A stretch of 21,172 nt of DNA, taken from Candidatus Sigynarchaeum calidifontis (lineage in GTDB: Archaea; Asgardarchaeota; Lokiarchaeia; Sigyniarchaeales; Sigyniarchaeaceae). The position numbers and the translations under genes are program-made. The notes beneath the pieces were generated by a model. That model saw only the letters and a list, made by a program, of their open reading frames with translations, had not been told where the DNA came from and did not search any database. The DNA lies in the NCBI GenBank assembly GCA_030587475.2, contig JAUQYZ020000043.1:1-21172 (forward strand). The letters run 5' to 3'. Positions 10,910 to 21,172 of this stretch are shown in pieces (within the stretch, counting starts at the first letter, position 1; every line of letters begins with the position of its first letter).

Positions 10910-11340
10910 AGAGATCAACCACTTAACTTCTCATCTAAATATATATGCTTTATGCCGTTTATGCCTATTATTGCTCAACATGTCTGATAACCATTCAATA
11001 TGCCAGTAAGTCCGCGTTTTTTATAAAAAAAAATACATCTACCAGAGATCTACATGTTTTTCATCGTCGTAGACGTCCTCCATATTCGCTTGGTTGTGTC
11101 CGTTATTGATAGAAAGAACCTTGCTCGATTTTAAAAAGATTTTTTTTTCATGTGGATTGGGATGAGATGATTTCCACGCAAAGAAGAGATTATGTTGCTA
11201 TTTTCTCACCGGGGAGAAAAAAATAAGTTTCTCCATAAAATCCGGCTAATTGAACGCCCAGGCAACTGCCGCGTGCCAGGGCGGGAAGTTATTAATATAC
11301 CCGAGTTGATTATGTTACCATCGTCGGGATGGTGAGAACG

Positions 11341-11760
11341 ATGCTGGATGGCGTGTACATCATAAAATCTTCGGGCGTGAGCTTCGCGGCCCTGGATAAC
11401 GGCACCGTCTCGACCACGAGCCCGGATCTCATGAGCCCTTTCTTCTCAGCACTTTCCGCGTTTACAACGGAAAACTTCAAGGCGAACATCAAGTGCATCA
11501 TCATCGATGACGAGGACGGTGTTGAAAAGAAGGTATACTTCAAGGATGTCAAGCTTTACTCGGATTCGTTCAAAGTCGTCGCCATATTCTCGAAACACAA
11601 CGCATCTTTCAAGGAAATCGATGCAAAAATGCTCCAATTTAAATGGCTCATGCAAGAGCGTGGCTGGTTCAAGTATTTGAACAGCGGATATATCCCTGAT
11701 AATGTCAAGCGTGATATCCAAGACAAGATCAAGGAGCTATTCGCCGTCGGCTCGAAATAA
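11341..11760 (+). CDS. Stand-alone longin-like domain protein (Asgard type)
   Basis: 'MLDGVYIIKSSGVSF...SPDLMSPFFSALSAFTTENF..NIKCIII' follows the longin pattern (strand-strand with xxG turn, then helix 'DL.sgF.sAl..F..E'). GGTGA RBS at 11331-11335 and TATA-like TTATTAATATA around 11289-11299. Confidence 0.7.
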   Translation: MLDGVYIIKSSGVSFAALDNGTVSTTSPDLMSPFFSALSAFTTENFKANIKCIIIDDEDGVEKKVYFKDVKLYSDSFKVVAIFSKHNASFKEIDAKMLQFKWLMQERGWFKYLNSGYIPDNVKRDIQDKIKELFAVGSK

Positions 11761-11778
11761 ATGGTATTTCACGCCTAA

Positions 11779-12783
11779 TCAAGTGCGGGTCGGAAATGGT
11801 GAGATGTTCTTCGAGACTTCCTTTTGCCTTTTTCTCGGCTTGCGGTTGATGAGCAGAACCGCCACGGATACGAGGGGAACAGACACCCACATGGCATCCG
11901 GTATCGGACGCGTGAAAAGCACGAACGCGAAAAATGCAGCGATAATCGGTTTCAAGAGCGAGAAGCTGATGCCGTGCGAGACATCGATCCACTTCACGCC
12001 GATGAAAAAGATGTAGAGGCCGATGCCGGACGAGACGATTGCCAAGAAAGCGATGAGACCCCATTCTGCGGCATCGTGCTGGAGGAAATCGGGGATTTCC
12101 TCGCTGAAAGGCAAGGTGATGGCGATGGGAATGCACGACAAGAAAAAACTCCAAATCGTGAACTTCACATCGACGTTCTCTATGCCCGGGTTCCGCCGGA
12201 ATATCTTCTTCCCGAGCACCGAGTAGAAGCCCCATATTGCTCCCGCGAGTACGAGCAAGATATTTCCCATGATCTTGTCAGGCTGCATGATGATCGCGAA
12301 GTTGAAATTCGTGAGCAAGATGAGGGTGCCGATGAACCCGATGATGAACCCGAGGATCTTGAGCGGGATATTATCGCGCTCGTTGAGGATGAAGATACTG
12401 TAGACCCCGATGAACAGCGTGTAGGACGTGTATAGTGCAGCGCCCACGTGTGCCTCGGTGCCATACAGCTGGATACCCAGGAAATAAATCATGTTGGAGA
12501 TGCCAAGGCCGACCACGCTCGATAAAAATAGCAGCGCTGGTTCTCTCTTGATCAATTCTCCGAAACCAGATAGATCTCCTCGCGCGATCATCACGACGAG
12601 GAGGAAAACGCCACCGAAAAAGAATCGATAGAACGACAGCGAAATGGAACCCACGCCCGATCCAGGAACACCTACCCGCGGTTTCAAGAGCCAGACGATT
12701 ATTTCGGAGAAGGACCAACAAAACACGCCAAAGAAACAGAGGAAATATCCCTTCGTCGAGGCTCGCATGAGTACTAGATTCAT
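11779..12783 (-). CDS. DMT-superfamily (EamA) transporter
   Basis: Ten TM helices in two repeats. Motifs 'FCWS', 'LSFYRF', 'ILNER', 'GNILLVLAGAIWGFYSVLGKK' and 'LLKPIIAAFFAFVLF'. The start could also be MRAST. Confidence 0.9.
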   Translation of the reverse strand: MNLVLMRASTKGYFLCFFGVFCWSFSEIIVWLLKPRVGVPGSGVGSISLSFYRFFFGGVFLLVVMIARGDLSGFGELIKREPALLFLSSVVGLGISNMIYFLGIQLYGTEAHVGAALYTSYTLFIGVYSIFILNERDNIPLKILGFIIGFIGTLILLTNFNFAIIMQPDKIMGNILLVLAGAIWGFYSVLGKKIFRRNPGIENVDVKFTIWSFFLSCIPIAITLPFSEEIPDFLQHDAAEWGLIAFLAIVSSGIGLYIFFIGVKWIDVSHGISFSLLKPIIAAFFAFVLFTRPIPDAMWVSVPLVSVAVLLINRKPRKRQKEVSKNISPFPTRT

Positions 12784-12941
12784 GGGTGCTTTTTAAGAGG
12801 TGGCCAAATCACGTGAATGCCACCCGATCGCTTCACGAGGGGTATCGATACGATTGACTGTGCGGAATAGCCGAACATGCGATTAGATTTAATATGCCAA
12901 TGACAATACATTGACAGAGCAACGGGAAATAAAACGGATCA

Positions 12942-13733
12942 ATGGAACAAGCCATGTCAAACGAAGAAAAACTCGCTCGGGTGTTGGATTTCATCTCCAA
13001 GGGTTTGGATTCGCTAGGCGAACAACTCCAAGAGACCAGCAAGGCAATTGCTTCTTTTCAAGAAGCTATCAAAAACGCCAAGAGCGATCTATCGGGTGTC
13101 GACGTTGGTCCCGTCGGCAAGAAAAGCCGTGGCGGATTCTTTGGCGGAAAAGCCAGCAAAGCGGGATCCGTTGACAAGCAAGCCGCGGCGAACACCTTGA
13201 TCGGGTTACTCGGTGGTGGCGGTGCAAAAGCACCAGGATCGACAGGTTCCTCGAGCGGTGGCTTGTTTGGCGGGGGGACTGCAAAAGCTTCAACAGGCGG
13301 CCTTCCAAGTGGCCCTGGCGGACTCCCGACCGCGCCGGGCTTGCCGGGCATACCAGCAGCACCGAAAGGTCCCAGTCTCGGCCTGAGCCTTGGTGGTGAT
13401 GAAGGTTCAAAACCTGGCGGGTTACCAACTGGCCTTCCGAGCGCGCCTGCTGGCCTTCCGGGTGCGCCTGCAGGATTACCAGGCATCCCGTCCATGCCGA
13501 GGGCACCGGGCCCTCCAAGCTTGCCTGGGGGTGCGCCGACGGTCCCGAGTCCCCCGATGGGCGGCGGCATTCCAGCACCACCAGCACCGCCAGGTCCACC
13601 AGGCATAGGAGGCGCCCCGATAGCCGCACCGCCAGCAGCCGGTGGTGCTGCTGGCGGGGCTTTCAAGTCGTTACGTGACGAGATGCTATCCGAATTAAAC
13701 CGATTGAAAAAGATAATGGGTGGCGCGAAGTAA
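12942..13733 (+). CDS. Coiled-coil + Gly/Pro-rich disordered protein with a C-terminal amphipathic helix ending in LKKI (WH2-like or MIM-like)
   Basis: N-terminal heptad-rich helix (LARVLDFISKGLDSLGEQLQETSKAIASFQEAIKNAK), about 110 aa of LPxxP/PPxPP repeats, and C-terminal FKSLRDEMLSELNRLKKIMGGAK. An AT-rich promoter region lies upstream and T-tracts lie downstream. Alternative start at 12954. Confidence 0.8.
   Translation: MEQAMSNEEKLARVLDFISKGLDSLGEQLQETSKAIASFQEAIKNAKSDLSGVDVGPVGKKSRGGFFGGKASKAGSVDKQAAANTLIGLLGGGGAKAPGSTGSSSGGLFGGGTAKASTGGLPSGPGGLPTAPGLPGIPAAPKGPSLGLSLGGDEGSKPGGLPTGLPSAPAGLPGAPAGLPGIPSMPRAPGPPSLPGGAPTVPSPPMGGGIPAPPAPPGPPGIGGAPIAAPPAAGGAAGGAFKSLRDEMLSELNRLKKIMGGAK
13431..13487 (+). 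repeat. In-frame 21-bp tandem repeat encoding GLPSAPA / GLPGAPA / GLPGI
   Basis: ggccttccgagcgcgcctgct, ggccttccgggtgcgcctgca, ggattaccaggcatc. Confidence 0.75.
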
Positions 13734-13828
13734 CCATCCGATTCCTTTGTTTTCTCGCATGATAATTTCTTTTTCGTCTTATTAGCATATTAATAATAAA
13801 AATGGCAAATCGATAGGATTGAACGTAT

Positions 13829-14284
13829 CTATCGTGGTGCTTGATGCGATATCCAGCGGCTAGAGCCGTCCGAGTAGATTTCCTTCTTCCAAAGTGGCGT
13901 TTCCTTCTTGTAACGATCCACGACATTCTCGAGTGCCTTGAATCCCTCGCTTCTATGCGCTGAACTGATAAAGACGTGTACCATCGGCTCCCCGAGCTCG
14001 AACGTGCCAGTCAGATGGATGATCACGACCTTGTGTATACCCGCAAGAGCTTCTGTCTCCGTGGCAATACGCTGGAGAACCCCGCTGGAGACGCCCTCGA
14101 TCGCTTCGATCTCGATCTGGCGGGTCTTGGCAACGCCCGCGTCGCCATCCTTGGAATCGCCACGAACCGTGCCCGTGAAAGTCACGATAGCACCACACTC
14201 GTGACCTTTAATGGACGATCGGAACATCTCGAAAAGTTCACCGAATGGCAGCGCGGATTCCTTCGGAATGGTGCCAGATTTCAT
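13829..14284 (-). CDS. moaE: Molybdopterin synthase catalytic subunit
   Basis: Motifs GAIVTFTGTVRG, HLTG, SSAHRSEGF and KKETPLWKKE...W. A GGAGGT RBS inside the end of moaD supports the ATG at 14284. Confidence 0.95.
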   Translation of the reverse strand: MKSGTIPKESALPFGELFEMFRSSIKGHECGAIVTFTGTVRGDSKDGDAGVAKTRQIEIEAIEGVSSGVLQRIATETEALAGIHKVVIIHLTGTFELGEPMVHVFISSAHRSEGFKALENVVDRYKKETPLWKKEIYSDGSSRWISHQAPR

Positions 14285-14288
14285 CGCG

Positions 14289-14594
14289 TCAACCTCCTGA
14301 AAAGGGTGGGAGAATGCCAAGTTCGTCCGAATCCTTCAACACGTGATCCATGGCCTCTTGCGGGTTCATGATGTGCTTGTTGAGCATGATCTTGTATCCC
14401 GGTGCTATTACAAAACCTCCGACCGTGTTGGTAACGATTACTCTTCCCGCTAGCTTCTTTCCGGTCGCAGCGTCCAACGCACGTAAGAAGTCCGATAACG
14501 TGCACATGTTGTCGGGGAGGACTATACTCACTGCCTTTGTCCCGGCAAGGTCACTTGCCTCGCCAAAGAGCAACGCTGTCATCCTCAATGGCAT
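14289..14594 (-). CDS. moaD: Molybdopterin synthase sulfur-carrier subunit (MoaD/ThiS/SAMP ubiquitin-like)
   Basis: 'LFG...DLAG', 'LKDSDELGILPPFSGG' with C-terminal GG. It sits between moaA and moaE and has a GGTGAGG RBS. Confidence 0.92.
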   Translation of the reverse strand: MPLRMTALLFGEASDLAGTKAVSIVLPDNMCTLSDFLRALDAATGKKLAGRVIVTNTVGGFVIAPGYKIMLNKHIMNPQEAMDHVLKDSDELGILPPFSGG

Positions 14595-15565
14595 CCGGTA
14601 CCCTCACCTATCATATATGGCGCCCGTGCTTGAATGGCTTTCAACACCAGAGCCCGGACCTCGCTCCCGGGGCGTTTCTCGCGGATCTTGGTGATTAGGT
14701 CAAAGCTCGTCCCCGCTTTCATCAAACATGGTTTTATTTTTCCCTCTGCAGTAACGCGAATCTTGGTGCAGTGCGCGCAGAATTCGGCGGATGGTTTGAT
14801 CACCTCGATCGATGCGCCGTTCGTGAAGAATACCAGCTTTCGATGCTGCAAGTTCCGGAATTCCACATGGTCGACCGGTTTCGAGATGCGTTTCAAAGTG
14901 GATTCGACATCAAGATGATGTTTCTCGTAAAAGGCTCGTTTCTCTGGATTAGTATCCGGGATCTCGTGCAGTTCGATGATCTGCAGCCGCAGTCCCTTGT
15001 TCCCGCAGAAATCGAGCATCGCGTCCAGTTCACCATCGTTGATGCCCTTCATAATCACGTAATTGATCTTGACCGGCACGAGGCCCGCGGTGATAGCAGC
15101 GTCGATTCCCTCGAGCACATTGCTCAAGCCGTCAACGCGTGTTATCATCTTGTATGTACTATCTCGCAGTGAACACAAGGAAATGTTCACCCGATTCAGG
15201 CCAGCAGCCTTCAGCGCAATAGCAAGGCGAGCCAGGTAAAACCCATTCGTTGTCATCGAGATTTCGTTGATCGTGGGGATGCTCGATATGGCTTTTACAA
15301 CACCGATGACGTCCGGATGCACCAATGGCTCGCCCCCGGTGATTTTTACCTTCTTGATGTCGCCGATCTCATTGAATGCTTGCACGATAGATGCTATCTC
15401 AGCCGCTGAGAGCATGTGGCCGTCAACAGGTGTCACATTACCTTCCTTGTCGCAATAGATACAATTGTAATTGCAGTCCCGGTTGATCGATAGCCGGAGA
15501 TAGTTGACCGGGCGGTTGTAATCGTCTCGGAGATTCATGGAATGATCAACACTTGAATTATCCAT
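14585..15565 (-). CDS. moaA: GTP 3',8-cyclase (radical SAM), archaeal type
   Basis: D.YNRPVNYLRLS, CNYNCIYC, KITGGEP, MTTNG, RVNISL, VKIN and FCAHCTKIRVTAEGKIKPCL. It ends in R.PY rather than the bacterial GG. The start may be MNLRDD. Confidence 0.96.
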   Translation of the reverse strand: MDNSSVDHSMNLRDDYNRPVNYLRLSINRDCNYNCIYCDKEGNVTPVDGHMLSAAEIASIVQAFNEIGDIKKVKITGGEPLVHPDVIGVVKAISSIPTINEISMTTNGFYLARLAIALKAAGLNRVNISLCSLRDSTYKMITRVDGLSNVLEGIDAAITAGLVPVKINYVIMKGINDGELDAMLDFCGNKGLRLQIIELHEIPDTNPEKRAFYEKHHLDVESTLKRISKPVDHVEFRNLQHRKLVFFTNGASIEVIKPSAEFCAHCTKIRVTAEGKIKPCLMKAGTSFDLITKIREKRPGSEVRALVLKAIQARAPYMIGEGTGCH

Positions 15566-15614
15566 TGGCGTAAGGCATTTTTGGTTTCTGGTTCTTTTTT
15601 TCCAACGAGATTCA

Positions 15615-16925
15615 TCAAGAAGGGTGCAACGATACTACTACAACGTCCCCAGCTTCATAGCCTTCGATGTCGGGGGGTATCTCGACGAAACCATCGGATT
15701 CCACCATCGAGCGCTGCATTCCCGCGCCCGATAGCTTGACGGGAATGGCCCTGGGTAGTTCGTTTCTAGCAGGCTCACGATCATCAACCTTAACCCGCAA
15801 GAGCCTCGTGATCCCGAAACCCTTGACGGCGACCGCGTCAGTAAGCCTCGCACGTACACGCACACGGGGATCTAGCACGGTTTCTCCGGCAAGCTTGCGG
15901 ATCGCGGGCATCCCGAAGTAGAGCATCCCGATCTCCGCTGCTACCGGGAATCCGGACAAGCCGAGAATCGGCTTTCCACTCCCGGTACCGAGTAGCGTCG
16001 CCGCGCCGGGCTTCATCGCTATACCATGATATAGGATCTCGTGATGCTTTCCCACGACTAACGGGATAAAGTCCCTATCCCCCACGGAGGTTCCGCCAGT
16101 GGTGATGACCATGTCGCAAGATTTTAACGCGCTAGTTATCGCGTCCGAGATCGTGCGCTCGTCGTCGGCTAGCATCTTTGCTCTTACCACGATCCCGCCG
16201 GCGATAGCAACGAATGCGCCGATCGCGTGACGATTCGAATCAATCATTTTACACCGCCCGGCAGTGCGGGGATCTACGAGGTTGCCCGCGTCATTATTCA
16301 ATCCGTTAATCTCCACGAGCTCGTTCCCGGTTATAAAGACGGCCACGGCGGGACGTGTGATGACCCTGATCCGGGCCATGCCCAGCGTGGCGAGAACGCC
16401 GATGTCTTGCGGTCGAATTTTCCTCCCTGCAGGGAAAACAAGTTGCCCTTCCTTGTAATCCTCGCCGGATTGAATTATATTTCCACCCGGTGCAACTTGT
16501 TTATATAGCCGAATGGTGGTTCCATCGACATCTGGTTCCGTGTCTTCGATCTTAACGACAGCATCAGCGCCGCGCGGGATCATCGCGCCGGTCGAGATTT
16601 TTAACGCTGTACCCGAGGAGACAGAAGCATCAGGCTCTTCACCAATGACCACGCTGCCCACTAAGCGTAGCACGCATGGGTTTTGAACGCTTGCACCAAA
16701 CGAATCCATGGCCTGTATCGCATATCCGTCCATTGCTGACTTGCTAAAAAACGGCACTGACCAACGCGCGAAAACCGGTTCCGCGAGCACCCGGCCGAGC
16801 GAGTCATCGAGGGAGATCACCTCGGTCGCGCCAGTGGATCGCACGCGGGCAAGGAACCCGGCCATTGCGTCGGTCATGCTTGCTAGGCTGGGAAACCCGG
16901 TCTTTTTCAACTTGATCACGTGCAA
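15615..16925 (-). CDS. moeA: Molybdopterin molybdenum/tungsten transferase, paralog 1
   Basis: GRVLAE, SAMDGYA, TGAMIPRGADAVVKIEDT, TGNEL, DSN, TGGTSVGDRD, MKPG and GLSGFP. Start at TTG 16925 (7 nt after GGAGTGA) or GTG 16919; the track's 17093 start overlaps moaB. Confidence 0.95.
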   Translation of the reverse strand: MHVIKLKKTGFPSLASMTDAMAGFLARVRSTGATEVISLDDSLGRVLAEPVFARWSVPFFSKSAMDGYAIQAMDSFGASVQNPCVLRLVGSVVIGEEPDASVSSGTALKISTGAMIPRGADAVVKIEDTEPDVDGTTIRLYKQVAPGGNIIQSGEDYKEGQLVFPAGRKIRPQDIGVLATLGMARIRVITRPAVAVFITGNELVEINGLNNDAGNLVDPRTAGRCKMIDSNRHAIGAFVAIAGGIVVRAKMLADDERTISDAITSALKSCDMVITTGGTSVGDRDFIPLVVGKHHEILYHGIAMKPGAATLLGTGSGKPILGLSGFPVAAEIGMLYFGMPAIRKLAGETVLDPRVRVRARLTDAVAVKGFGITRLLRVKVDDREPARNELPRAIPVKLSGAGMQRSMVESDGFVEIPPDIEGYEAGDVVVVSLHPS

Positions 16926-16932
16926 GTCGGTT

Positions 16933-17481
16933 TCACTCCTTTTTTCGCAGCATGGCAAGCAAATGAGATATCTCGGGGATGATGATCTTTTCAAGTCCAA
17001 GCTTGACTGCTTTCGGGGAGCCAGGCAAGCAGAACACCGGCTTTTGATTGATGATGAATGCCTCGGCGCGGCTGAGCATTGCGGATGTTCCAACGTCTTG
17101 ATAACTCAAGGCACGGAAGAGTTCTCCAAATCCCTGAAGATGCTTGAGCTTCATGCCTGCGAGCACGTCGACCGTTATATCACGAGGGGAGATACCGGTT
17201 CCACCACAAGTTACCAAGACGTCGATATCAGTGCTTGTCGCGAAGCTCTTTACGAGATCCTGGATCATCCCGGCATCGTCTGCCACGAAGTCCGTCCTCG
17301 CAAGCTCGTGGCCATGTTGCTTCAACAAAGGACCAGCCATGTCGATGGTCTTGTCGGTTGATGGGAGTGCCTTGATCCGCTCTTCATATCTCGTTGTACT
17401 TACGATCACTATCCAAAATCGCAGGTGATCGGGGTTCGCTTGCTTGTGCTGCTTGATGGTATCGGGTAAATGACTCGTGAT
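16933..17481 (-). CDS. moaB: Molybdopterin adenylyltransferase (MoaB/MogA family)
   Basis: VSTTR, D.AGP, V.DD, TCGGTGISPRDITVD, GFGELFR.LS, AMLSRA and LPGSP.AV. The conserved N-terminus (HKQANPDHLRFWIVIVS) lies upstream of the first canonical start (GTG 17409), so the start is tentatively placed at ATC 17481. Confidence 0.9.
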   Translation of the reverse strand: MTSHLPDTIKQHKQANPDHLRFWIVIVSTTRYEERIKALPSTDKTIDMAGPLLKQHGHELARTDFVADDAGMIQDLVKSFATSTDIDVLVTCGGTGISPRDITVDVLAGMKLKHLQGFGELFRALSYQDVGTSAMLSRAEAFIINQKPVFCLPGSPKAVKLGLEKIIIPEISHLLAMLRKKE

Positions 17482-17490
17482 CGATCTCCC

Positions 17491-17982
17491 TCATTCGAGC
17501 GTTTTGGCTGAATGCGCCTTGATCTTTTTCACCACGCGCACGTTCTGGATGGCTGTTGACGGATATTGACCGTCTGCATCCTTCTCGTACATCTTGGTCA
17601 TATCCCAGACGTTGAGCAGCGCCGCGGTCGTCGCAGCCAGTGCTTCCATCTCCACGCCGGTACGCTCCCGCGCCTCGACCTCGCTCTTGACCAACACGCG
17701 ATCATCCAGCACCGAAATCTCAACCTCTACCTTCGTCAATCGCAATGGATGGCACAAGGGTAGCATGTCGGGAACCTTCTTCGCAGCCATGATGCCAACA
17801 AGTTTCGATGCAGCAACGACATTGCCTTTCTCGAGCGTACCTTGCCGGATCATTTCGATCGTAGCTTTTTGAAGCAATATCTCGCCGGAAGCGATAGCCA
17901 CCCGTTCAACAACGGGTTTTTCGCCCACGTCTATCATCTTGATGTCGGCCGGTTTCCCGCCGTGCTTCGGTGCTCGTGCCAT
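17491..17982 (-). CDS. moaC: Cyclic pyranopterin monophosphate synthase
   Basis: MIDVGEK, R.A.ASG, KGNV, GIMAAKK, LPLCHP, TGVEMEAL and archaeal-type WDMTKMYEKD..GQYP.T.I. Confidence 0.97.
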   Translation of the reverse strand: MARAPKHGGKPADIKMIDVGEKPVVERVAIASGEILLQKATIEMIRQGTLEKGNVVAASKLVGIMAAKKVPDMLPLCHPLRLTKVEVEISVLDDRVLVKSEVEARERTGVEMEALAATTAALLNVWDMTKMYEKDADGQYPSTAIQNVRVVKKIKAHSAKTLE

Positions 17983-18066
17983 CTGCGATATTCCTTCTAT
18001 TGATGAGAAAAAACACCCCTCGAGGAATTTGATTCTTGCGATGTGAATGATTGTCTATAACGATGA

Positions 18067-19347
18067 TCACGGATAGGGATTCCCCGGACATCCCCATGAA
18101 AACAAGATCACGTCGACATGCGTTCCCTTTTCCACAATCTCGACGTTCTCGGGTATTTCAAAATATCCATCCGCATCAACGAGAGTCGTTACGGTTTCCG
18201 AGCCTTTTGTAACTGGTTTCGCTTCCCACGTACCATCCGGTCCCCGCTCGAGCACGACAGGCTTGAGTTCGAGGCGCCCGAACTCGGAGTACACGCGCTC
18301 GGTGAGGCACGCTTGGACAACGACGCGCTGTTCCGGTGGCTGGTGGTTCCACCGTCGCAAAGCAGGCAGCACGAATCGAACCATCGTCATCGCCGCGGAT
18401 ACGGGGTTCCCGGGCAAGACGAATACAGGCTTGTTTTTCACGAGGGCCATGATGATTGGTTTGCCTGGCTTGACACGAACGCCGTGCACTTGCAAGGTCG
18501 TCGCCGGGTGCTGCCCGATGAGAGACGGCATCAGGTCGCCCCGGCCCTTCGACGTGCCACCGGAACAGATGACCACGTCACTCTGCTCGAGGATGGCCTC
18601 GAATGCCGGCCCCAAGGTAACCATCTCGTCAAGAAAGATCCCGTGAAACGCGACGCTGCACCCGGTCGATTCCAACATGGCCGCCAGCATGACCGTGTTC
18701 ACGTCGTAGATCTTTCCCGCCGCCAGGGGCTTGCCCGGCTCCACGATCTCGTTACCCGTGCTAAACAAGCCGACCCGTAGCTTCTTGAACACACATGCCG
18801 AGGTGAAGCCTGCCGCGGCGAGGGCTCCCGCCCTTGCCGGTGTAATAAAAGTTCCCTTTTTGAACAGCAAACTGCCTTTCCGGATATCCGCCCCGGGGAC
18901 AACAATGCCGTCACCGGGGACAACTGCTTGGAGAACTTGTACCGCCTCACCATCCTTACCCAGGGCCTTTGTATACTCGATCTTGACCACGCTATCAGCA
19001 CCGTCTGGGATATAGCCACCAGTCGGCACGTACATGCACTCGGCCTCACCAGTTATAGGACGTGGGGGCGCGTGGCCCATCTCGACTGCACCGATGACAC
19101 GGCACGAGACAGGTCGCCCCTCGTTTGCTCCAAATGTCGACCGCGCTTTCAAGGCGTAGCCATCCACGCTCGATTTCGGGAACGATGGGACGTCGATGGC
19201 ACAAGACACGTCATCAGCGAGAGCACGTCCAGCGATGCCGGCGAGCGGGACTTGCTCTTTTCCCGGCTCGGCAAGGTCGATGGCATCTAGGATGCTCGTG
19301 AACTCGGTAATGCTGATTGCTTTGAGGAAACGGCTCTTGCTGATCAT
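18067..19347 (-). CDS. moeA: Molybdopterin molybdenum/tungsten transferase, paralog 2
   Basis: GRALA, DVPSF.KS.VDGYA, TGGYIPDGADSVVKIE, STGNEI, YDVN, SGGTSKG.GD, VKPGKP, LPGNPVSA and ADG. No C-terminal periplasmic-binding extension. Confidence 0.95.
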   Translation of the reverse strand: MISKSRFLKAISITEFTSILDAIDLAEPGKEQVPLAGIAGRALADDVSCAIDVPSFPKSSVDGYALKARSTFGANEGRPVSCRVIGAVEMGHAPPRPITGEAECMYVPTGGYIPDGADSVVKIEYTKALGKDGEAVQVLQAVVPGDGIVVPGADIRKGSLLFKKGTFITPARAGALAAAGFTSACVFKKLRVGLFSTGNEIVEPGKPLAAGKIYDVNTVMLAAMLESTGCSVAFHGIFLDEMVTLGPAFEAILEQSDVVICSGGTSKGRGDLMPSLIGQHPATTLQVHGVRVKPGKPIIMALVKNKPVFVLPGNPVSAAMTMVRFVLPALRRWNHQPPEQRVVVQACLTERVYSEFGRLELKPVVLERGPDGTWEAKPVTKGSETVTTLVDADGYFEIPENVEIVEKGTHVDVILFSWGCPGNPYP

Positions 19348-19449
19348 GATCACGGTACCGCGGCATCTTCAGGGATCAAAGGGCACGCGCGCTGTTAAAC
19401 GTTACCCGGGGTAAAAAACGATGATGGACAAAAGAATTGAAAAGTTCGG

Positions 19450-20832
19450 TTATTTCTTGAGCATGTCGTTGATCTCGATATTCCCCGCTGGTGAAAATTT
19501 CGAGATCGAATCCTTGAGCGGCGGGTTATGGAAGAAATTCTCGCCCGTGTAGTTTATAAGAGTTCGTTCTTGAAACTCGTCCTTGCGCTCGAACTTTATT
19601 TGCACGATCCTCGGGTCGATCTTGGCGTTTACAAGTTCTTGGAACAGATGAGTTTTGAGCTTGTTGAACTGCGATTCCTGGAATAGCAGGAGTATATATG
19701 CCATTAAAACTGTCCCAATGACAGGAAAGCCGAAGATGAATATGCTAAACATCGTCGCACAAAGACCGGCGAAAAAGCCAGGTGAAAAGTTATCGACCGC
19801 GGTGAATATCTCCCCCACGACAAATCGATTGGTGTAGATGAAAGTTACATAAGTGATCAAGGCACTCGTGCCCAACACGGCTTGAATTAACGAGGAAAAC
19901 CATTGGCTTACGCTGCGCAATTCAGCAGGCTGGCGCCGCTCCGTGTATTTTTTATAATAGACCAATCCGGCATCATCGAGAAGGTATGTTGATGGCAACA
20001 CCCAGAAGAAAATTACGAAGGTCGCGACGACGGGAATGACCGTATGGAAGATCAAAGATGAACAATACAACACGAAACCAGGACTATCAATCACGGTAAG
20101 AGGTGGACGGTATTGGAGCTCGTATCCAAGGCCACGCGGAAAAAACCCACCTATTTCTGTCATCAAGGGATGCCACACCGAGAACACGATGGTGAGGCTA
20201 TAAATCAAGGCAGTGAACGCGCGCTTTAACGTGATAGTGAAGGAATGATCTTGTGGCGTTTGTAATACCATTATCTCGCAGGCTTTTGTCTTTGTCGTCC
20301 AATTGACGGCCTTGAAGACGCGGATGATGAGCTTCACCGCCAGACCGGGAGCGGTCTTGTACCACAAGGCCATGATGAACGGCATCGAAGCGAAGTAAAC
20401 GACCAAGGCGATGATGACGACGCCGAGCATCTTGCCTTGATCATTTTGACTGACAATTGTAAATGGAAAACTGGAATTGAGCCAGAAAAAAAACCACAAG
20501 CCAAAAAGCACCAGCCCCAAGAAGATCAGCATGAAAACAATGCTTCCGATGGCGTTTTCCACCCCTATCCGTTTTTTTTCTTGCTCGCTTGTCTTTGCTT
20601 TATTATACTTGATCGCGAGAGCAAGATATAGCAAGAAGGTGCTTGCCGCGCAAGCGAGCATTATCGGAAAAGAAGATATTAACCTTTTCCCAGTAAAAGC
20701 AATCGCAAGAATAGCAAAAATGACGAATAATCCAAAGGCAAGAAGCACCCTGACGATTGGCACGCGCCCTTTTATTGCTTCTTTTGCAGCTTTGCGTTGC
20801 TGCATCAATTCTTTCATGGATGGCATGGACAT
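19450..20832 (-). CDS. Uncharacterised polytopic membrane protein (~8 TM)
   Basis: Long ORF with ~8 hydrophobic segments, a 'PSTYLLDDAGLVY' loop and a soluble C-tail. Start placed at MSMPSMKE (20832). Confidence 0.75.
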   Translation of the reverse strand: MSMPSMKELMQQRKAAKEAIKGRVPIVRVLLAFGLFVIFAILAIAFTGKRLISSFPIMLACAASTFLLYLALAIKYNKAKTSEQEKKRIGVENAIGSIVFMLIFLGLVLFGLWFFFWLNSSFPFTIVSQNDQGKMLGVVIIALVVYFASMPFIMALWYKTAPGLAVKLIIRVFKAVNWTTKTKACEIMVLQTPQDHSFTITLKRAFTALIYSLTIVFSVWHPLMTEIGGFFPRGLGYELQYRPPLTVIDSPGFVLYCSSLIFHTVIPVVATFVIFFWVLPSTYLLDDAGLVYYKKYTERRQPAELRSVSQWFSSLIQAVLGTSALITYVTFIYTNRFVVGEIFTAVDNFSPGFFAGLCATMFSIFIFGFPVIGTVLMAYILLLFQESQFNKLKTHLFQELVNAKIDPRIVQIKFERKDEFQERTLINYTGENFFHNPPLKDSISKFSPAGNIEINDMLKK

Positions 20833-20941
20833 CACGTCGATAATTGAGATTGAGCAACAAATACAATCTTGGTTATATATATCTATTTTCGAAATCGCGC
20901 TTGAAAAAAGGGTTGAACTGCAATAGTGCAAATAATAACAA

Positions 20942-21172
20942 TCAAGGCTTGAACCAGCGGAAGACGTAATACGTGATCGTGGGCAATGTCATTTCTCCCG
21001 ACGAGATGCTCGCAATGACGAAACGTTTTTTAACGCTCGTCGCGAGCCGGCCCGCCTTGACCATGTCCATTGACGAGATGCGGTTTTCGTGGTGGGGCCC
21101 GAGGACAACAAACCCAGACTGGGCAAGGCCCGGGCCGGGGCGATAAAAACTAAAAAAAACACAGAAAGTTAG
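20942..21172 (-). CDS. endA: tRNA-intron lyase (tRNA splicing endonuclease), 3' end only; runs off the window and is not in the ORF track
   Basis: Manual translation from 21172: LTFCVFFSFYRPGPGLAQSGFVVLGPHHENRISSMDMVKAGRLATSVKKRFVIASISSGEMTLPTITYYVFRWFKP*. This matches the EndA C-terminus (Y..GPG..H, GRLA.SV(R/K)K, i.YY.f.w.kP). Confidence 0.85.
   Translation of the reverse strand, partial: LTFCVFFSFYRPGPGLAQSGFVVLGPHHENRISSMDMVKAGRLATSVKKRFVIASISSGEMTLPTITYYVFRWFKP

Follow-up and report, generated by a model that had tools for sequence, protein, structure and literature searches.

We analysed a 21,172-nucleotide window of the Asgard archaeon Candidatus Sigynarchaeum calidifontis (contig JAUQYZ020000043.1, positions 1 to 21,172; coordinates below refer to this window unless another contig or locus is named), which carries on its + strand a coding sequence for a protein of 263 amino acids (aa) plus stop (12942..13733, taken from the list of open reading frames, ORFs). 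This gene, for which we use the working name tether gene, is real and belongs to a previously undescribed family of putative adaptor proteins that is nearly universal in Asgard archaea, of which it encodes the soluble, coiled-coil form; its coding sequence is backed by 8 close homologues and over 100 distant ones. A preliminary description made from the letters of the window had given exactly this ORF and had proposed an actin regulator with a C-terminal WH2-type motif. We reject the WH2 assignment, and favor as the probable reading that the protein is a tether whose flexible arm holds out a docking helix to a conserved partner. Translation likely starts at M5 (12954) and not at the first codon of the ORF, because the homologues open with MS.. 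and the protein Atlas entry begins at residue 5.

Architecture of the protein and its gene

An AlphaFold2 (AF2) monomer model built on a 46-sequence alignment places a long amphipathic helix of the coiled-coil type at the N-terminus (residues 7-51; 12960..13094, + strand), modelled with a predicted local distance difference test (pLDDT) score of 93-98. Within this helix, L22, L25, L29, K34, F39, A46, D49, and L50 are at least 90 % conserved in the alignment, and it would serve as an anchoring or presumably oligomerising module. A second conserved element, a mini-helix with the core A-A-x-x-L-x-x-L-L-G (residues 76-90; 13167..13211, + strand), contains A82, A83, L86, and L90 as positions that are invariant in the 46 sequences. 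The following ~145 residues (95-239; 13224..13658, + strand; pLDDT ~42-55) make up a disordered arm rich in Gly (28 %), Pro (25 %), and Ala (15 %) with LPxAP and LPGIP motifs, whose longest proline run is 2 and whose length and sequence differ between homologues. The protein then ends in a putative C-terminal docking helix (residues 240-259; 13659..13718, + strand), predicted as a single helix with pLDDT 83-88 and representing the conserved motif of the family, and in a short tail, GGAK, that runs into the TAA stop (13719..13733, + strand); in relatives, the distance from motif end to stop is always 5-6 residues. Projected onto a helical wheel, F241, L244, M248, L252, L255, and M259 line up as a single hydrophobic face with conserved charges on its flanks.

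The three-part layout that had been read from the sequence (N-terminal helix, flexible arm, end helix) is thus upheld by the AF2 model, to which the mini-helix 76-90 is to be added, and the proline motifs listed at the time are all present (LPTAP at residue 128, LPGIP at 134 and 179, LPSAP at 165, LPGAP at 172, MPRAP, and PAPPAPPGPP). LKKI, which had been taken for a terminal element following the helix, sits within helix 240-259, with five residues still to come. Two variations among relatives concern the mini-helix and the arm. In the distant members L114, L115, and L120, the mini-motif reads acidic-x-[LV]-[FW]-x-x-[LFM]-x-G (e.g., E-D-L-W-S-V-L) and resembles an LC3-interacting region (LIR) of the Atg8 type or another short aromatic docking motif. 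An orthologue from a closed genome of 6,035,313 bp (L110:9371-10183, minus strand) carries a tandem array of GPPSGPPKA repeats in its arm.

The tether gene is solitary on the + strand, with both flanking genes on the minus strand. By-eye reading suggests an AT-rich TTTAATAT box about 50 nucleotides (nt) 5' of the start as a possible archaeal TATA element (12888..12895, + strand) and a T-rich stretch 3' of the stop as a possible archaeal oligo-T terminator (13743..13779, + strand). The upstream neighbor in the window is an EamA transporter gene (minus strand). On the other side, and convergent to the tether gene, lies a complete molybdenum-cofactor biosynthesis cluster (13829-19353, minus strand), comprising MoaE, a MoaD/ThiS-like protein with a GG end, MoaA (radical SAM), MoeA, MoaC, and a second MoeA-like ORF. 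Two long antisense ORFs (13058-13666, 202 aa, and 13069-13629, 186 aa, both on the minus strand) span the Pro/Gly-rich tract, since CCN and GGN codons mirror each other; annotation of the wrong strand by gene callers is possible at this tract, in the window gene and in its orthologues alike. The G+C content changes strongly within the 21 kb, from 65 % at 1-1000 to 45-46 % at 11000-12000 and 20000-21000.

Conservation, spread and reuse of the terminal helix

The 8 close homologues are 46-62 % identical to the window protein and have an identical tail. In a locus scan that covered one genome per prokaryotic species and used patterns derived from the tail, 103 loci were found and 80 kept, 79 of these carrying labels of Asgard or uncultured-archaeon metagenome-assembled genomes (MAGs). 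The tail is near-invariant in the 80 kept species-level loci and stands at its constant distance from the stop throughout, a uniformity that is partly due to construction, as the scan patterns were themselves tail-derived. The one locus with a deviating label (L014; DATKTW010000083.1) is assigned to a Candidatus Nanopelagicaceae bacterium; the tail of its family gene is identical to that of the Asgard locus L017, and the contig is probably mis-binned.

A full-length profile, with which the window protein scores 170.6 bits, recovered family members from 270 out of 400 Asgard genomes, and a profile built on the final 34 aa found the motif in 137 of the 151 Asgard genomes that are at least 90 % complete, usually as a single copy. 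Run against 1.84 billion protein cluster representatives, the 34-aa profile returned just 93 at E<=1e-3. In the organism's own genome (5.0 Mb in 269 contigs, 89 % complete; 52,782 ORFs), it assigned 54.5 bits to the window ORF and 46-48 bits to the two motif copies of one other protein, the next best match having 11 bits. Phylum-wide, L244, E251, and R254 of the helix are invariant and E247, M248, and L255 at least 90 % conserved; K256, K257, and I258 are variable, with K/R/E/A/T at position 257 and I/L/F/Y/A/M at position 258 (for example RLKAL, RLREI, RIKEI, or RLNRA). The family can be defined by the terminal pattern h-x-x-L-[RKQ]-x-E-M-h-x-E-h-x-R-h-[KR], located 5-6 aa before the stop and preceded by a Pro-rich arm and, at the N-terminus, by an anchor, and the window protein has all of these features.

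Distant members retain a Pro-rich arm and the end helix but differ in their N-terminus, which gives rise to three types of anchor. The first, to which the window protein belongs, is a soluble coiled coil in proteins of ~210-260 aa; the second consists of one N-terminal transmembrane (TM) helix with basic residues and a conserved helical hairpin (~300-350 aa), and the third is a polytopic membrane domain (~560-630 aa). In most lineages, the tether is membrane-anchored through TM segments, and the basic residues that follow the TM helix indicate that the arm of the TM forms is cytoplasmic. Two hints at known domains in the TM forms were discarded: a CdvA-like coiled coil (PF18822) in the hairpin is matched by 1 of 34 members, at 18.4 bits versus a cut-off of 30, and a SHOCT-like similarity, seen in 3 of the 34, was not reproducible.

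Searching with the motif profile, we found the helix in a second architecture, in which an optional Ras/Roc GTPase domain and a Pro-rich stretch are followed by one to three helix copies that directly precede a conserved zinc ribbon (CPxCG...CCxCF). The long forms of these proteins end in a domain that AF2 folds as a longin domain (Foldseek probability 1.0 to VAMP7, Ykt6, and Sec22b). A carrier of this GTPase/Zn-ribbon type is encoded in the own genome on contig C63 (L010:1129-1953, minus strand); it has 274 aa, with two internal helix copies and then the CPxCG...CCxCF element. This protein is shorter than its longin-bearing relatives P0019 and P0050 and may be truncated or frameshifted, and immediately upstream of it lies a MoaD/ubiquitin-like ORF with a GGG end. 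The helix is also found internally in a TM-type family protein from a metagenome (P0038, 549 aa), where a C-terminal TIR domain follows (PF13676, 65.9 bits). The reuse on GTPase/longin proteins would tie the helix to membrane or cytoskeleton signalling, without naming its partner.

The terminal helix and its candidate partners

In the reading that we consider probable, the N-terminal module would fix or oligomerise the protein, by way of the 45-residue helix in the window protein and of a TM helix plus helical hairpin, or a polytopic domain, in other lineages. The flexible Gly/Pro-rich arm would supply reach in the manner of a "fishing line", and the 20-residue amphipathic end helix would dock on a conserved cytoplasmic partner via the face formed by L244, M248, L252, L255, and M259, with E251 and R254 flanking it. 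A membrane-held protein needs no lipid-binding end helix, and charged residues of the helix are conserved; we therefore infer that the partner is a protein.

Several points weigh against this reading. The partner is a predicted one, docking itself is something that we infer from the sequence, and the end helix might serve self-association instead. For a relative from the GTPase family, AF2 modelled the motif helices at low confidence (pLDDT 51-64), with no cis-docking on the Zn-ribbon or longin domains. One family represented by seven small genomes has Vps4 in 7/7 and a detectable motif in none; the tether family is therefore not strictly universal, an observation that does not discriminate between the candidate partners. 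Moreover, no known family, structure or paper matches the tether protein: Pfam yielded zero families at E<=10, a PDB profile search gave collagen-like or low-complexity matches only, the protein Atlas holds only unnamed Promethearchaeota clusters, and the literature search was likewise negative. This agrees with the earlier expectation that domain annotators would overlook the end peptide, which is strongly conserved yet has no Pfam match.

As to the identity of the partner, we would tentatively place the hydrophobic groove of actin, docked in the arcadin-2 mode, first among the named candidates, though as an unlikely one; a MIT domain (that of Vps4 or a different one) and the GTPase/Zn-ribbon/longin carriers would each be a more doubtful choice, and the large remaining weight falls on something else.

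The WH2 assignment of the tail, on which the actin proposal had originally been built, did not withstand closer inspection. PF02205 found no match at E<=10 in the whole protein and none in 23 family tails, and the window ORF is not listed in a six-frame WH2 scan of the genome, in which other places score 11-14 bits. The linker typical of WH2 is missing, LKK-x does not form the conserved core, and there is no polyproline. Two caveats attached to the original assignment were borne out in this respect: helix and LKK are separated by 2 residues (N-R between L252 and L255), inside one continuous predicted helix that includes LKKI, and proline runs do not exceed two residues. The continuous helix 240-259 stems from a monomer prediction and may change in a bound state. 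Conservation of LKKI, which had been suggested as a check, gave a divided result: the motif is kept within the order, but phylum-wide K257 and I258 vary, with L255 at 90 % or more and R254 invariant. An OAR-motif match on 3 of the 23 tails (E 0.009) was put down to a chance S-I-A-A-L-R likeness. In the literature, 'WH2' in Asgard archaea denotes only an LKKT-like linker within gelsolins, and a structure-based survey of eukaryotic signature proteins (ESPs) mentions neither WH2 nor VASP nor WASP. We thus reject WH2 membership and keep actin binding by another mode among the candidates. The presumption of an Asgard host with actin proved correct, the own genome encoding a canonical actin (lokiactin; 436 bits; C144:14529-15638, minus strand) and two further actin-family genes; its profilin-like match, on contig C181, is weak and sub-threshold.

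According to the actin proposal in its remaining form, which we regard as possible though on the unlikely side, the terminal helix would occupy the hydrophobic cleft of lokiactin, as do WH2 helices and arcadin-2, and would thereby link actin to the cortex or membrane, or feed or sequester monomers. By eye, the helix pattern R-x-x-M-L-x-x-L followed by L-K-K-I fits this idea, but the WH2 hidden Markov model (HMM) is negative, a linker or extended LKK segment is missing, the LKKI positions vary across the phylum, and the arm offers no polyproline to profilin. Within the order, canonical actin sequences share 89-97 % identity, in step with the near-invariant helix. Docking of a terminal helix on an actin from archaea is known from arcadin-2 of Pyrobaculum, whose last 17 residues suffice to bind the hydrophobic groove of crenactin with a dissociation constant (Kd) of 31 nM (PDB 5LY3; PMC5173319), although the motif described here is devoid of Trp, the key arcadin-2 contact. 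The only Asgard actin regulators known so far are gelsolins and profilins (published survey; bioRxiv 10.1101/2025.11.30.690169).

The sole contextual support for actin binding comes from one large taxonomic family, in which 77 of 80 loci have a same-strand actin paralogue just downstream of the tether gene, directly adjacent in 22-24 loci (gap of 130-280 nt) and separated by a PIG-L deacetylase gene in 53; these genomes are fairly diverse, the neighboring topoisomerase having a median identity of 60 %. However, the neighboring actin is a separate paralogue (~295 bits, 374 aa) and the canonical lokiactin (441 bits) lies elsewhere; the paralogue class was not found in the own genome, where the best match is 42 % identical. 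Adjacency is absent from the window and from the three closest families, whose neighbors are unrelated, and rpiA (ribose-5-phosphate isomerase A) is the gene conserved downstream at 33 loci from 8 further Asgard families, with PGK, a tRNA-intron endonuclease, and other housekeeping genes nearby. Being confined to one family, with housekeeping neighbors elsewhere, the actin adjacency is lineage-specific and therefore weak evidence of function. The paralogue class itself (L024:2609-3727 and 76 other loci) is ~42 % identical to lokiactin and has 9wc4, 'HC1 actin', as its best PDB match. A 121-aa ORF 3' of the paralogue was considered as a profilin and rejected, as it looks like a winged helix-turn-helix (wHTH) regulator.

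A bolder version of the actin proposal, which we consider unlikely and put forward as speculation, is that the end helix is an Asgard coupling peptide that would connect membrane or cortex to actin by inserting into the lokiactin groove. Membrane anchors would present it in most lineages, and its reuse on Ras-like GTPase/longin proteins would let the GTPase switches act directly on actin. If true, this would be a functional forerunner of the eukaryotic axis from membrane via GTPase and nucleation-promoting factor to actin, reached without WH2. Asgard archaea do build actin-based protrusions (bioRxiv 10.1101/2025.11.30.690169).

A second candidate is the ESCRT machinery, of which the own genome encodes four ESCRT-III proteins and Vps4 (the Vps4 gene, C149:34213-34829, is cut at the contig end after ~205 codons, with the MIT domain, C149:34267-34542, intact). 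Here, the helix would act as a MIM1-like ligand for a MIT domain, that of Vps4 or a different one, and the protein would recruit or regulate Vps4 as an ESCRT adaptor, LPGIP-type motifs in the arm providing MIM2-like sites; we find this doubtful. MIT-MIM recognition has been described in Asgard archaea (PMC7240154), the helix lies, as in ESCRT-III, at the extreme C-terminus behind a proline-containing linker, and LPGIP, present in two copies, fits the MIM2 pattern. Furthermore, three of the four own ESCRT-III proteins end in h-x-x-E-L-E-[KR]-L-[KR], by eye similar to E-L-N-R-L-K-K. Yet the tail departs from the MIM1 consensus (D/E)xxLxxRLxxL(K/R), as E-L-N-R-L-K-K-I-M corresponds to L-x-R-L-x-x-I and is one residue short, with no final basic residue; the motif profile misses the tails of the ESCRT-III proteins, the best of which reaches 1.7 bits at rank 241, and the tether is without a Snf7 fold according to Pfam. 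No ESCRT or Vps4 gene was present within 8 kb at any of 10 distant loci, nor among the conserved neighbors of 50 further loci from 13 families, and the N-terminus of Vps4 is only 39-48 % identical between families, in contrast to the unchanged helix. A published survey of ESCRT contains nothing on the tether family. The resemblance to MIM1 is thus by eye only and founded no better than that to WH2.

Comparably improbable, in our estimation, is a coupling to the GTPase network, in which the end helix of the tether would pair with the same helix, the Zn-ribbon, or the longin domain of the Ras-like GTPase proteins and draw them to the membrane or cortex. These proteins are the only other carriers of the motif and one is encoded in the own genome on C63, their C-terminal domain folds as longin, and longin domains bind helical peptides. 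On the other hand, AF2 left the motif helices undocked on precisely these domains, as stated above, and the carriers are much rarer than the tether, most genomes holding a single motif copy. Finally, a membrane-targeting amphipathic helix of the MinD/FtsA type, with which the amphipathic character, C-terminal location, and hydrophobic moment (0.46) would be compatible, is highly improbable considering that most lineages already have a TM anchor, that E251 and R254 are invariant and the mean hydrophobicity is negative, and that such sequence invariance is atypical for lipid binders.

Comparison with known systems

A flexible tether with a protein-docking helix, the reading we favor, would be a concrete handle on Asgard cell organisation, the protein being near-universal, mostly single-copy, membrane-anchored in most lineages, and sharing its peptide with GTPase/longin proteins. 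Whichever partner it has, be it actin, ESCRT/Vps4, the GTPase module, or a new one, this partner must hold a conserved, central place in the cell biology of Asgard archaea. To our knowledge, a membrane-to-filament linker or adaptor has not yet been described for Asgard archaea, and the closest parallels come from other systems.

With the WH2 motif (PF02205) of WASP, WAVE, WIP, MIM/ABBA, and thymosin-beta4, the tether has in common a short amphipathic R-x-x-hh-x-x-h helix that is succeeded by L-K-K-x and preceded by a proline-containing tract. The gap between the core and LKK, however, comprises about 5 residues in WH2 versus 2 in the tether, where the motif lies wholly in one helix, includes conserved acidic residues, does without polyproline, and has LKK-x outside its conserved core. 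On the level of domain layout, MIM/ABBA proteins resemble the tether in joining a helical membrane module at the N-terminus to a middle part rich in Ser/Pro and a C-terminal WH2. Ena/VASP and the nucleation-promoting factors of the WASP family likewise bring together a coil for oligomerisation, a region rich in proline, and short helices that bind actin; in these, the order of modules differs, and the tether lacks EVH1, VCA, and acidic regions as well as profilin-type polyproline and resembles them neither in sequence nor by profile. MIM1 of ESCRT-III proteins (Vps2/CHMP1 class) is similar in being a leucine-rich amphipathic C-terminal helix with an R-L core and a basic end, and is set apart from the tether by consensus spacing, Snf7 domain, and ESCRT neighborhood, as well as by the failure of the profile to detect any ESCRT-III tail.

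An archaeal parallel is arcadin-2 of Pyrobaculum calidifontis, a regulator of crenactin, in which a conserved C-terminal helix is the sole partner-binding part and whose gene stands beside an actin-family gene, as does the tether gene in the one Asgard family with 77 of 80 such loci. Arcadin-2 differs in that its binding rests on a Trp that has no counterpart in the tether motif and in lacking a Gly/Pro arm, and the window gene has no actin neighbor. Bacterial cytoskeleton-membrane tethers of the ZipA/EzrA type, finally, have no homology to the family, the end of ZipA being a globular domain and not a peptide, and the window protein itself is without a TM helix; the TM forms of the tether nevertheless share their layout, in which an N-terminal TM helix and a coiled coil are followed by a long, flexible linker rich in Pro and by a C-terminal element for partner binding that faces the cytoplasm.

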